NCBI GenBank assembly: GCA_963741955.1
Contig: CAVUKB010000005.1
Location: 544,001 to 608,000 of the forward strand
DNA: 64,000 nt
Reading direction: 5' to 3'
Source: an uncultured Acidobacteriota bacterium
GTDB taxonomy: Bacteria; Acidobacteriota; Thermoanaerobaculia; Gp7-AA8
A program made the translations under genes and the position numbers. Of the stretch, positions 17,381 to 20,757 are shown piece after piece. Within the stretch, counting starts at the first letter, position 1. Every line of letters begins with the position of its first letter. The notes beneath the pieces are model-generated. The model was not told where the DNA came from and ran no database searches. It saw nothing but the letters and a program-made list of their open reading frames with translations.

Positions 17381-17893
17381 TCAGAGAGCGAGGGTGCGGA
17401 TACGCTTCAACTGCTCGGACGGATAGAGACGCGGGTTCACTGAGCCGTGCGCCTCGAGGATTCGCCCATCTTCCCCGATCAGATAGGCGATGCGGCGTGC
17501 GAAGAGATCGTGCGGTGAGCCGGCCGCTCCGTACGCCATCCCGATCGTCCGATCCGGATCAGAAAGCAGCGGGAAGGGGAACCCGTGCTTCGCGGCGAAT
17601 TCCTCCAGCGCGTCGCGCGAATCGAAACTCGAACCGATGATGACGACGTTCCGCGCCGTATAGGCGTCGTAGAGATTCCGGAACCCGGAACCTTCGGCCG
17701 CTCACCCCGGCGTGTTCGCTCTCGGAAAGAACCAGAGTACGACCTTCTTTCCGCGGAGGGACGAGAGGTGCACCCGCTCGCCACGATGGTCGAGGGCATC
17801 GAAGTCGGGAGCACTCTCTCCGACCGAGAGCATGTGCGGCTTCCGGCGAAGCACGGCATCGGCGACCAGTCTGAGAATTCCCTTCAGCGACAT
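17381..17893 (-). CDS. bcp: BCP/PrxQ peroxiredoxin, probable selenoprotein (in-frame TGA at 17702-17704)
   Basis: VVLWFFPRANTPG-TGA-AAEGSGFRNLYDAY...VVIIGSSFD...FPFPLLSDPDR...RIAYLIGEDGRI continues in frame to the stop at 17381. The TGA sits at the peroxidatic Cys of PxxxTxxC. The start may be 17833. Confidence 0.82.
17672..17695 (-). promoter_or_regulatory. Candidate bacterial SECIS hairpin
   Basis: GGUUCCGG-GUU-CCGGAAUC; the loop begins with G 18 nt after the UGA. Confidence 0.65.
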
Positions 17894-17967: not shown

Positions 17968-18444
17968 TCACTTCATCCATTCGTAGACCAGGTAATGCTC
18001 GCCGGACATGCCGAGTCGCTCGTAAACCAGCTGCGCGGGTCGGTTTCGCCGGTCGACGTAAAGCCGTACTCCGGCAATTGTATCGTCTGCATCCACGATC
18101 TCACGAACATGAGCGTAGAGACTCGCATAGACTCCGCGTCTCCGCATCGATTCGTCGACGAAAACGCTCTGAATCCACCATACCGTTCGGGCGCGCCAAT
18201 CGCTCCACTCGAAAGTGATCAGCAGCGATCCGACCACCTTTCCACCCGCTTCGGCGATGAAGTACCTCCCGAGCGACGGATCTGCAAAGACGCTCCGTAC
18301 ACCGCGGCGGCAGGTCTCGCCATCGAGCTCGACCTCCTCCGTCTCCCGCGCCATCCGCAACTGGAACGCGACGATCGTCTCGGCATCAGCCTCCACCGCA
18401 TCCCGGCAGCGGATCGAGTTTCCGTCAGGTCGAATCTCCGTCAT
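17968..18444 (-). CDS. GNAT-family N-acetyltransferase
   Basis: ITFEWSDWR...WWIQSVFVDESMRRRGVY and N..AQLVYERLGM. Confidence 0.88.
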   Translation of the reverse strand: MTEIRPDGNSIRCRDAVEADAETIVAFQLRMARETEEVELDGETCRRGVRSVFADPSLGRYFIAEAGGKVVGSLLITFEWSDWRARTVWWIQSVFVDESMRRRGVYASLYAHVREIVDADDTIAGVRLYVDRRNRPAQLVYERLGMSGEHYLVYEWMK

Positions 18445-18546
18445 ACCAAAGCACTCCCGATAAGTGAATCGTCGTTTACCACTTCCGCAACAGCGCCGAA
18501 CGGTGCGTTCTTTCTCCAACCCTCCCCGGCGCGGACCATTCAATCA

Positions 18547-18572
18547 CGGAATGATGCAGTTGCATCATTCCG
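18547..18572. promoter_or_regulatory. Perfect 12+12-bp palindrome, candidate transcription-factor operator
   Basis: CGGAATGATGCA-GT-TGCATCATTCCG; the core recurs at 19736-19751. Confidence 0.6.
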
Positions 18573-18605
18573 AATCGAAAAAATGAACCGAGAATTGGGA
18601 TGTGT

Positions 18606-18882
18606 GTGGGCCATAGAGGAAGAGAGTGCTGGTGAAGGACCCTTGAAGCGGTTCGAAAGGACCGCGGCCCGAACGCCTCGAGAGGAAGACCGAAGGTTGC
18701 GTGACGAAGCTCAGCGCCTTGCCGCGTAACGGATCCAAGTGACCCGCCGTGACCTTCGGAAGAGACGTCCGAGCACAACACGATGGTGCCAAGCCTGCCA
18801 ATCCATCGCTCCTTCCCGGGAAAGGGACTTCATCGAATCCGCACCTCCCTACTCGGCCGCAACCTCTATGGCCCACCTTTTT
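18606..18882 (+). ncRNA. Candidate ~270-nt structured non-coding RNA of unknown family
   Basis: 14-bp closing stem (18606-18619 / 18863-18876) followed by a T-tract, nested helices with G-U pairs, a GAAA-capped hairpin, and no credible ORF. Confidence 0.55.
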
Positions 18883-18995
18883 GATTCGAGGGATCAGGAG
18901 CTCGGGACGGAGCTCCGAGGCGTGGCGGGGAGTCACCGGCTGAAATACCGAACGGGTGCGCTGGGGAACCCCGATTTCGGGGTCAGGGCCGGGAC

Positions 18996-19691
18996 TCACC
19001 CGCCGATTTCGTGTCTCTCGCTCGCGCCGGCGGGGATTCCACGGAAACGAGCCGTCGCGGCAAGCCTGTTGTGCACTCCGAGCTTGGCCAGAATCCGCTG
19101 AACGTGATTCCGCACCGTCACCCGTGAGATCGAGAGGGTCGAGGCGATCACTTCGGTCGCTTCTCCCCGGTCCAGCATCCCGAGGATCTCTCGCTCCCGA
19201 GGAGTGAGAAGCCGTTCGACCTCCTGGGTCTGCTCGCATCCCGCAGCCTGATCACTCTCCATTCCTTCCGTGGCCTGTCGGATCGCTTCATCCGCCACGT
19301 CGGTAGGCATCTCGCCCTTCAGCACGGCTGGCGTGAGCGTATGCACGACGACCGGCGCCGCTGCGGGGGTTCGACGCTTCGACAGAGGCTCGACCACGAA
19401 CGGCAGATACTCGCCGCAGCTGTTGCGGTATCGCGCGATGAACGGGTGGACCTCGGCGTTCGGCATCTCCCGCACCTGATGGGAGATCGGACAGGAGCGG
19501 TAGCAGTGAACGTTCCCGAAAAGGTCTCTCCCCGCGAGGAGGTCATAGCACCGCTTCCCGAGCGCGTGATCGGCGTCGATCCCGAACTGCTCGGAACATG
19601 CGTCATTCCAGGAAACGATGCGGTTCTGATGGTCGATCGCAAATGCCGGCTGCTGGAGAGGGTCGGGGGCTTCTTTCGGTACATTACGCAT
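18996..19691 (-). CDS. PAS domain + LuxR-type HTH transcriptional regulator
   Basis: PAS-like AFAIDHQNRIVSWNDAC...GKRCYDLL with C-x14-C-x3-C; LTPREREIL...TVRNHVQRILAKLGVHNR (LuxR HTH). Confidence 0.88.
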   Translation of the reverse strand: MRNVPKEAPDPLQQPAFAIDHQNRIVSWNDACSEQFGIDADHALGKRCYDLLAGRDLFGNVHCYRSCPISHQVREMPNAEVHPFIARYRNSCGEYLPFVVEPLSKRRTPAAAPVVVHTLTPAVLKGEMPTDVADEAIRQATEGMESDQAAGCEQTQEVERLLTPREREILGMLDRGEATEVIASTLSISRVTVRNHVQRILAKLGVHNRLAATARFRGIPAGASERHEIGG

Positions 19692-19735
19692 TTGTCAGAA
19701 ATATAGCGCTTCTCCGGCCGCGCGGCACGAAAAAC

Positions 19736-19751
19736 TGATGCATCTGCACCA
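19736..19751. promoter_or_regulatory. Second copy of the TGATGCA-N2-TGCATCA box, upstream of the PAS-LuxR gene
   Basis: TGATGCA-TC-TGCACCA (1 mismatch in the arms); a minus-strand TATATT -10-like hexamer lies at 19705-19700. Confidence 0.5.
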
Positions 19752-19851
19752 ATTGTTCACAGTTTTCTGCTGAATCCGGGTGGTAGGATGCGCGCGGACT
19801 CCTCCCTGAGTTGCCGGCCGGCAACCGACACGTCCCCGGAGATGAGCGGAG

Positions 19852-20757
19852 TTGACTGACGATCACCTGAACACGCGTCTCGCCCCCCTGATGCTTCTCG
19901 GATCCTCCACTCTGTTCGGGGTGATGTCATTCCTGGCGAAGGTCGTCTCGGAGGTGATTCCCGGCTCAGAGGTCGCATTCGTCCGCTTCCTCGTGGGCAT
20001 CATTCCGATCCTTCTGCTCACCCGCGCGAGGAATGCGGCTTTCACGTTCCAGCGAGTCGACATCCTTTTCTATCGAGGATTCTTCGGCGGCGTGGCGGTG
20101 CTCTGTTTCTTCACCGCGATCGCGCACATCCCGGTCGGCGTCGCGACGCTGCTCAACTACATGGCGCCGATGTTCAGCGGCTTCTTCGCCGCGATCTTTC
20201 TCGACGAACCGCTGACCGCGCGCGTCCTGGTTCCGCTGGGAGTCGCGTTCGGCGGCGTGATCCTGGTCGTGAAGGCTCATGCGGCACCGGGAGAAATTCT
20301 CGGATTCGGAATCTGGCACCTGGTCGGGCTCCTCTCCGCAGTGCTCTCGGGTGCCGCCGTCACCGCGATCCGCGGAGCGAGGCGGACCGAGAACTCGTGG
20401 GCCATCTTCGGGAGCTTCTCGCTCTTCGGGCTTCTCGCCACCCTGCCGGTGGCTGCGTTCGAGTGGCACACGCCCACCCTCTTCCAATGGATGCTTCTCG
20501 TCGGGGTCGCCGCATTGTCGATCGTCGCTCAGCTGATCATGACCCATGCCTTCCGCTGGGTCGAAACGCTCATCGCGGGCGTCATATCCCAGTTCACCGT
20601 CGTCGTGGCAATGACCATGGGGGCAATCTGGCTCGGAGAGAAGATCACGCCGCTCTCACTGATCGGGAGTCTGCTGACGATCGGCGGTGTCGTCTCGGTG
20701 GTGGGATTCACGCCGCACAAATCGGCCGAGGACGCCGAGCTCGGACGGCCAGGGTAG
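19852..20757 (+). CDS. DMT/EamA-family transporter
   Basis: About 10 TMs in two repeats; ATLLNYMAPMF...FLDE and WLGEKI. Confidence 0.85.
   Translation: MTDDHLNTRLAPLMLLGSSTLFGVMSFLAKVVSEVIPGSEVAFVRFLVGIIPILLLTRARNAAFTFQRVDILFYRGFFGGVAVLCFFTAIAHIPVGVATLLNYMAPMFSGFFAAIFLDEPLTARVLVPLGVAFGGVILVVKAHAAPGEILGFGIWHLVGLLSAVLSGAAVTAIRGARRTENSWAIFGSFSLFGLLATLPVAAFEWHTPTLFQWMLLVGVAALSIVAQLIMTHAFRWVETLIAGVISQFTVVVAMTMGAIWLGEKITPLSLIGSLLTIGGVVSVVGFTPHKSAEDAELGRPG

Follow-up and report, generated by a model that had tools for sequence, protein, structure and literature searches.

What is transcribed from the gap between the genes for a GNAT acetyltransferase and a PAS-LuxR regulator in the genome of an uncultured Acidobacteriota bacterium (assembly GCA_963741955.1; 5.4 Mb, 99% complete; G000 in our genome set)? 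A preliminary description had placed in this gap a large structured RNA under a lux-box-like palindrome, and we analysed the surrounding 64,000-nucleotide stretch (contig CAVUKB010000005.1, positions 544,001 to 608,000; hereinafter the window, whose coordinates are used unless a contig or locus is named). The results point to a probable 280-base non-coding RNA (ncRNA) gene outside the known families, predicted at 18602-18882 on the + strand, under the best copy in the genome of an operator that is linked to a regulon of protein-coding genes in related bacteria. Of the two, the regulon is the firmer part, and the RNA is a plausible candidate from a single genome.

The operator, its regulator and the regulon

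The operator palindrome (18547-18572) has 12-bp arms that flank a non-complementary GT, so that it is not perfect over 26 bp, as first described, but matches at 24 of the 26 positions. Its core, TGATGCAGTTGCATCA at 18552-18567, is the sole zero-mismatch copy in the source genome of a box with the consensus TGATGCRnnYGCATCA (half-site form TGAT-N8-ATCA), which at up to 3 mismatches occurs at 158 sites in the 5.4 Mb. Scored with a position weight matrix (PWM) derived from 148 training sites of other genomes, the + strand site of the window ranks first in the source genome (36.7), followed by a site scoring 32.6. The palindrome was also considered as a terminator, which was ruled out, a T run being present on neither side.

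The hexamer GAGAAT (18590-18595, + strand), previously suggested to be the -10 element, lies 22 nt past the box core, and the -10 score at this box is +6.7 on the RNA side vs -11.8 on the GNAT side. Among 85 box orientations that had not been selected for a -10, the pattern TAnnnT has 11 occurrences at offset 22 and 3 at offset 23, no other offset having more than one; a G in the first position of the -10 is present in 28 of 114 selected sites. Because the ATG of leaderless regulon genes most often lies 12 nt after the start of the -10 (11 of the 114 sites), transcription would start at about 18602, with the box centred at -42.5; these values, which had been proposed from the window alone, match the geometry of many regulon promoters. 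With an activator site near -42, a -10 hexamer and no -35 consensus, the promoter has, in its sequence geometry, the make-up of a class II activator-dependent promoter, and it is very probably driven by the box.

The regulator gene (18996-19691, - strand) is convergent with the predicted RNA and lies 114 nt downstream of the RNA end. It encodes a one-component protein of 231 aa, composed of a PAS domain and a GerE/LuxR-type helix-turn-helix (HTH), as judged from Pfam, alignment, structure model and fold searches, and a tree. Pfam detects no receiver domain in this protein, and no NCBIfam family reaches its cut-off; given that the N-terminus is PAS and not an acyl-homoserine-lactone domain, the designation lux-box-like does not apply. 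Four residues, C48, C63, C67 and H117, which form the pattern C-x14-C-x3-C plus H in the PAS domain, are invariant among 33 aligned relatives. The structure model (pLDDT 82) gives low-identity fold matches to EL222, VqmA and haem-PAS domains, and the best relative among 1.8 billion library representatives has 44% identity. The Cys/His set, together with the content of the regulon, suggests that the family senses redox via a metal, an Fe-S cluster or a disulphide. The C-terminus of the window protein (18996-19050, - strand) differs from the conserved last helix of the family and is about 10 residues longer.

The PAS-LuxR family is present in 102 of the 301 genomes of the class that were analysed, and the source genome has three copies, which differ in the recognition helix. 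The window protein has SRVTVRNH; the paralogue at G000:C6:279923-280634 has ATVRNH and a box 66 nt past its end, before a cytochrome c-type gene; and the paralogue at G000:C5:873526-874140 has LTARNH and no box. The C6 paralogue, with its own box, could also be an activator at the window box. A second box with a single mismatch (19736-19751) is located 44 nt upstream of the regulator ATG, where the recurrence of the core had been noticed, and has no -10 at offset 22/23, i.e., at the regulon spacing, by PWM and -10 scoring. The proposed autoregulation may be of either sign: a box is found at comparable places before regulator homologues, but the box here lacks the activating geometry.

The connection between the box and PAS-LuxR proteins extends well beyond the window. 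A box (at most 3 mismatches) is present in 29 of 30 loci that were chosen by the Cys-rich PAS-LuxR protein, and within 700 bp of 31 of 44 genes with the VTVRNH helix vs 0 of 15 with LTAR(S/N)H or LTVRNH, counts that come from related genomes in which kin are not independent and that carry no statistical test. The composite pattern of box, N22-23 and nAnnnT is found in 39 of the 301 class genomes (the reversed control gave 1 match), namely, in 29 of 43 genomes of family f6, 7 of 27 of f10 and 2 of 4 of f17, and in 0 of 72 genomes of the source genome's own family besides the source genome itself. The 301-genome tallies of PAS-LuxR proteins and of box plus -10 include G191 and G195, which are marked unpublished; no positive claim rests on them.

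Downstream of the boxes, 57 of 91 picked open reading frames were scanned, near-duplicates having been dropped by eye. The Pfam matches include Usp (4), CBS (3), Rieske (4), FeoB (2) and POR/PFOR (2), along with Hsp20, HypF, cytochrome bd I, CcmE, OsmC and rubrerythrin; 22 of the 57 proteins have no Pfam match at 1e-8. USP, CBS and Hsp20 belong to the DosR regulon, and, because the box drives USP, CBS, Hsp20, PFOR, HypF and cytochrome bd genes, it looks like the mark of a DosR-like low-oxygen/redox regulon. The notion of the RNA as the sole output of the regulator is not tenable, given the other boxed genes in the source genome and the whole protein regulon in relatives. The source-genome boxes include C5:100984, C6:177054, C6:208042, C6:208128, C10:264865 and C7:700088; the boxed genes, named from their translations by eye, encode a rhodanese-like lipoprotein and, divergent from it, a secreted protein, a small cytochrome c, a large secreted protein (two boxes), a peroxiredoxin and a membrane protein. 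A GTDB-wide scan for the extended box with a -10 returned at least 121 stretches, some of them from Chloroflexi, Krumholzibacteria, Eisenbacteria and Methylomirabilota and some before USP- or Hsp20-like genes, and no homologue of the RNA among the stretches listed. It may be that the regulon extends past Acidobacteria; chance probably accounts for many of these matches. Computation establishes the motif, the promoter geometry, the association with the protein subfamily, the composition of the regulon and the insertion described below.

The predicted RNA and similar elements

The fold of the predicted RNA is bracketed by a 14-bp closing stem (18606-18619 paired with 18863-18876, probability 0.99), in which all 14 pairs are Watson-Crick and which starts 4 nt past the assumed +1. 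The 3' arm and what follows (18863-18882) contain the likely 3' end: the perfect stem and the T run stand as originally reported, except that one C separates the stem from TTTTT (18878-18882). Within the stem, the 5' strands of three nested helices (18622-18644; pairing probabilities 0.92-0.98) are predicted to pair as 18622-18629/18841-18847 with one bulged A, as 18630-18637/18828-18835 with 2 G-U pairs (both at 0.95-0.98), and as a 5-bp helix, 18640-18644/18822-18826. These are followed by a 7-bp hairpin with a GAAA tetraloop (18648-18665, probability 1.0), a central arm (18690-18759) with a 12-bp helix, 18690-18701/18748-18759 (0.94), around a poorly defined 46 nt, and two small hairpins (18781-18821), 18781-18808 and 18810-18821, with probabilities of 0.95 and 0.68, the former closed by the stem 18781-18786/18803-18808 (0.95). 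The 5-bp and 12-bp helices are additions to the preliminary description, whose positions for the closing stem, the nested helices, the GAAA hairpin, the CGAUGG/CCAUCG stem, the palindrome, GAGAAT and the second box were all reproduced. The 8-bp pairing 18694-18701/18858-18865, described as an alternative or pseudoknot, does exist, but forcing it costs 14.6 kcal/mol, and it is not a pseudoknot because it is incompatible with the 12-bp helix and with three pairs of the closing stem. The 6 G-U pairs and the GAAA loop in the fold favour the + strand for the RNA.

On the 3' side, a 15-nt bulge (18848-18862) adjoins the heptamer CACCTCC (18842-18848), which is the anti-Shine-Dalgarno sequence of the 16S rRNA 3' end of the source genome; this identity may be chance, and most of the heptamer is paired in the fold model. 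No ordinary short terminator hairpin was found at the 3' end of the element, and no standard terminator on either strand between the RNA and regulator units. Two small hairpins without T runs (18896-18915 and 18968-18983) are located between the RNA and the regulator stop codon.

The closing stem is rare in its genomic context. The 5.4-Mb genome contains 927 perfect inverted repeats with arms of 14 bp or more and spacers of 100-500 nt, of which 29 are not repeat-derived, and the closing stem is the only one of these 29 with a T run after it. The source genome also carries intergenic palindromic and tandem repeat families with 14-mers at 50-370 copies (e.g., C5:351800, C7:533706, C4:567200-568800 and C13:8400-10000). 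The element itself is single-copy in the source genome and has no flanking direct repeat, i.e., it is not a miniature inverted-repeat transposable element. All considered, a discrete functional ncRNA at this place is likely.

The element is not a known RNA under a new guise. At gathering thresholds, Rfam 15 gave 0 matches in the window; at relaxed E-values, the best match in 18300-19900 had E 5.7, and none fell inside the element up to E 10. The models of RNase P (RF00010) and of the signal recognition particle (SRP) RNA (RF00169) did not match the element, with pairwise scores at shuffle level. The 6S RNA (C4:555271), RNase P, SRP and transfer-messenger RNA (tmRNA; C7) of the source genome lie elsewhere, and comparison of the element with each of them gave likeness only at shuffle level. 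ARAGORN made no call on the element at the default or the 90% score and found no + strand tmRNA at 80%. The initial judgement that the element is not 6S, SRP, RNase P or tmRNA, here extended to any Rfam family, agrees with the absence of element matches in the Rfam scans.

Several local likenesses were inspected and set aside. A DNA search of 60 relatives gave 5 short matches, four in coding-like stretches and one of 33 nt in what we take to be an attC-like stretch (L012:1420-1545, - strand); 28 of 33 nt in this imperfect inverted repeat agree with 18719-18751, which was judged chance. Kinship with the stretch before the PFOR gene at C9:84300-84830 was rejected, the similarity being ragged and matched by 15 and 5 of 200 shuffles; that stretch has a strong terminator, Crp/Fnr-type sites and no box within 4 mismatches, and is unrelated to the element. 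Exact motifs were sought three times in viral contigs, and none of the 5, 3 and 3 isolated matches extended collinearly; BLAST of phages and plasmids found none, and a metagenome scan with the minus-strand open frame as a pseudo-protein, an insensitive test, gave one chance match.

A second RNA is found behind the box in another acidobacterial order. An unrelated three-way-junction RNA of ~85 nt (L388-L398, e.g., L232:370-560, - strand, and L235:480-720, + strand), which emerged from the GTDB-wide scan, is present in 7 of 14 genomes of that order, no genome having more than 3 copies. A 12-bp stem closes this RNA, and its two hairpins have invariant C-rich loops (CCCGCC). In an alignment of 8 of the 11 matches, 4 of 23 pairs show a compensatory change, and a box is located upstream of 3 of the 8 copies; other copies are preceded by TGGCA/TGC motifs, which we take to be sigma-54-like. 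The two copies tested have no Rfam match. A covariance model of this RNA, R2, found nothing in the source genome or in the element; a weak structure-only match of 12 bits falls at 18944-19013, minus strand. The box upstream of 85-nt RNA copies shows that the regulon can drive ncRNAs, which by itself does not validate the window RNA.

The cassette and possible modes of action

The flanks of the module are the GNAT acetyltransferase gene (17968-18444, - strand), which lies outside it, and, on the right, an EamA transporter gene (19852-20757, + strand), which in relatives is directly divergent from the GNAT gene. In 29 loci of the family that contain a GNAT orthologue, EamA follows in divergent orientation in 28, and directly in 27, and neither the regulator nor the RNA is present in any (the tally includes G191, G195 and G336, which are marked unpublished and carry no positive claim). 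Since these relatives lack both, the RNA and the regulator are best read as a 1.3-kb insert between GNAT and EamA, which arrived together or in sequence. Beyond the GNAT gene lies a gene for an AhpC/TSA peroxiredoxin (17381-17893, - strand) whose frame contains a TGA (about 17702-17704) at the expected place of the catalytic Cys; given a hairpin after the TGA and a tRNA-SeC in the genome, the product is probably a selenoprotein.

The reading that we favour, at a probability of about 0.45, is that of a box-driven, stable RNA of ~280 nt that binds a protein and is encoded beside a PAS-LuxR sensor. Under this scheme, the 1.3-kb cassette would have brought a Cys-rich PAS-LuxR regulator and a convergent ncRNA gene into the space between GNAT and EamA. 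At low oxygen or upon a redox shift, a regulator of this subfamily would dimerise on TGATGCRnnYGCATCA at -42.5 and, whether it is the adjacent protein or the C6 paralogue, recruit RNA polymerase to a promoter without a -35 hexamer. The transcript would begin at about 18602, seal its ends by the 14-bp stem and stop at the T run. As our best guess, the stable RNA would then bind and hold a protein of the gene expression apparatus during the shutdown at low oxygen, much as RNA polymerase is held by Ms1 and 6S, and would not act as a base-pairing sRNA of the Hfq type. The signal, binding, transcription and fold are inferred here, and the protein partner is guessed. Should the element be a functional ncRNA, we give protein binding about even odds; it is favoured because of the closed ends, the Ms1-like size, the failure to find Hfq (PF17209) or CsrA (PF02599) in the 99%-complete source genome, and the lack of a base-pairing target above shuffles, the best matches of 5 element segments being within or close to the shuffle range.

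A number of observations weigh against this reading. The folding signal of the whole element relative to dinucleotide shuffles (z of -2.1, -3.4 and -2.4 in three runs) comes entirely from the closing stem: without it, z drops to -0.16 and -0.06, i.e., to shuffle level, whereas the same trimmed test gives -2.5, -2.7 and -1.3 for the tmRNA, 6S RNA and RNase P RNA of the source genome. The closing stem and the promoter are beyond chance; the inner fold is not. The 6S (RF00013) and Ms1 models do not match the element up to E 10, and its branched fold lacks the two-sided central bubble of 6S. The window regulator, too, is divergent from even its best relative (44%), with an altered C-terminus, and forms a long branch (2.1) among the boxed group, in a quick tree only.

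Searches for homologues of the RNA add to the doubt. BLAST found the element in 0 of 123 family genomes, a set without a second genome of the same genus, and no homologue in 400 genomes of the phylum, where 2 short matches appeared. A covariance model, R1, built from the single sequence entered twice with the modelled structure and hence of limited reach and devoid of a covariation signal, gave no credible match in 123 family, 150 class, 40 f6 and 40 f10 genomes, nor in 10 picked genomes and 40 from another phylum; the matches inspected lay in coding DNA, and weak ones (E 0.05-0.27) in some genome sets were left uninspected. R1 searches of the collected loci were likewise without a credible match, loci L097-L176 having been searched by nhmmer only. 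Such searches have little power for a diverged RNA, and the family BLAST and R1 tallies include the unpublished-marked G191, G195 and G336. Because no homologue was found, there is no covariation to examine. Many regulon-bearing genomes have no detectable such RNA behind their boxes; the RNA is therefore not a core member of the regulon.

The alternatives differ in what they make of the transcript. It is unlikely, in our estimate, that a real, box-driven RNA acts by Hfq-independent base-pairing with mRNAs, through CACCTCC and the 3' bulge, to lower translation at low oxygen in the manner of FnrS or VqmR. The identity of CACCTCC with the 16S 3' end speaks for it, as do the invariant C-rich loops of the box-driven 85-nt family, the pairing of 18836-18862 with the start regions of 4778 predicted genes, which is marginally stronger than that of its shuffles (median -17.6 kcal/mol, shuffles -14.1 to -15.3), and the precedent of VqmA, which activates the base-pairing VqmR (10.1101/2025.08.22.671807); yet the best target matches of all 5 segments do not clearly exceed shuffles, CACCTCC is mostly paired in the model and Hfq was not found. 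We also regard as rather unlikely that the promoter is real and the transcript functionless as a folded RNA, being a remnant or leader of a lost gene or, by convergent antisense transcription or interference, a means of damping the regulator gene. No RNA homologue was found, the inner z is about -0.1, no standard terminator separates the two units and the neighbouring regulator is divergent, all as this explanation would have it; decay, however, would not be expected to spare the only perfect box of the genome or a perfect 14-bp stem that brackets the +1 and the T run.

A coding role appears improbable. The GTG frame of 41 codons that ends in LAA-stop (18604-18729, + strand) is probably not coding; if it were, the transcript would be an mRNA with almost no leader, its product a 41-residue peptide tailed by an ssrA-like LAA degron, or else it would provide a tag template as tmRNA does, though lacking the tRNA-like domain. 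In favour of such a role, leaderless genes are frequent in the regulon, only 0.43% of 20,000 element shuffles give LAA-stop (a feature noticed post hoc) and a hairpin loop can accommodate the stop codon. Against this, the codon score of the frame is -0.37 vs 0.34 +/- 0.19 for real genes (0.5% of 800 are as low), the frame has no protein homologue, its start codon is inside the closing stem, and neither similarity to the tmRNA of the source genome (237 of 300 shuffles as good) nor a + strand ARAGORN call at 80% or more favours a tag template. Also highly improbable is that the box acts on the genes to its left, GNAT and peroxiredoxin, the fold being incidental or a mobile element. The GNAT ATG lies 107 nt from the box, and boxes elsewhere in the source genome are located 50-260 nt before peroxiredoxin and cytochrome genes without the offset-22 geometry; still, no -10 is present on the GNAT side at regulon spacing (-11.8), relatives keep GNAT without the cassette, and the single copy without direct repeats argues against a mobile element. 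Finally, a bolder extension of the favoured reading, which we consider doubtful, is that the element represents a new class of large, closed-ended RNAs, in a cassette with a Cys3His PAS-LuxR oxygen/redox sensor and as the top output of a dormancy-type regulon, that parks RNA polymerase or ribosomes at low oxygen, perhaps via the anti-Shine-Dalgarno stretch or the LAA frame; the regulon would then have recruited the 85-nt family independently.

Related systems and significance

As predicted from its parts, the window system works like VqmA-VqmR and DosR-DrrS and is a member of neither. The vqmR gene adjoins vqmA. In Vibrio cholerae, VqmA is a PAS-HTH activator of a small RNA that responds to oxygen and redox via cysteines, with a C48-C63 disulphide (PMC7387800; 10.1101/2025.08.22.671807). 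The window system shares with it the one-component architecture of PAS and LuxR-type HTH alongside a small RNA gene, here a predicted one, and VqmA structures take ranks 5-10 among the full-length Foldseek matches to the window regulator (E ~1e-5, 13-18% identity). The profile match to VqmA, however, covers only the HTH (151-203), and a PAS-only query did not recover VqmA up to E 10. Homology is thus not apparent across the PAS domain and the DPO pocket, and the coincidence in cysteine positions (48 and 63) is not established as homology. Unlike VqmA, the window family has the extra C-x3-C and H, another box and a regulon composed mainly of protein-coding genes, and, unlike VqmR, the window RNA is predicted to be closed-ended and has no Rfam match.

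In Mycobacterium tuberculosis, the LuxR/NarL-type HTH activator DosR drives the stable small RNA DrrS (MTS1338) (PMC5360333). The box-driven USP, CBS and Hsp20 genes resemble the content of the DosR regulon; in contrast, DosR has a receiver domain and acts as a phosphorylated response regulator, whereas the window regulator is predicted to sense and bind in one protein, the motifs differ and the RNAs are not similar. Ms1 is an RNA of ~300 nt (PMC9130861), and by analogy the window RNA may share with Ms1 and 6S the size, paired 5' and 3' ends, an internal bulge and likely induction as growth slows, but it matches neither Rfam model and its bulge is one-sided (2 vs 15 nt).

EL222, the top Foldseek match to the window regulator, also combines a PAS-type sensor with a LuxR-type HTH and is itself activated by light. 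In FNR/Crp class II activation, an activator site near -42 takes the place of the -35 element, and the low-oxygen regulon includes the small RNA FnrS; the window regulator belongs to another protein family, and its box has the half-site spacing TGAT-N8-ATCA. FG214, again with a PAS-type sensor and a LuxR-type HTH, has the reversed order HTH-PAS and bis-His haem ligation, and prefers an inverted repeat with a 2-bp spacer; the accessible part of that report describes no linked RNA (10.64898/2026.03.15.711900).

Two entities appear to be undescribed, namely, a one-component PAS-LuxR family with the invariant C-x14-C-x3-C...H and a clear operator, and the predicted ~280-nt RNA under the best operator copy. 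A literature search on the motif, the protein family and the ncRNAs of this group found nothing relevant, with the proviso that supplements or subscription papers could already list the box. The PAS-LuxR family looks to control a DosR-like low-oxygen gene set in a poorly studied class, for which the motif and the promoter geometry provide a ready handle on oxygen sensing. Few large bacterial RNAs fall outside the known classes, and for the window RNA the inducing condition, the start site and the activator are all predicted, which makes it directly testable.

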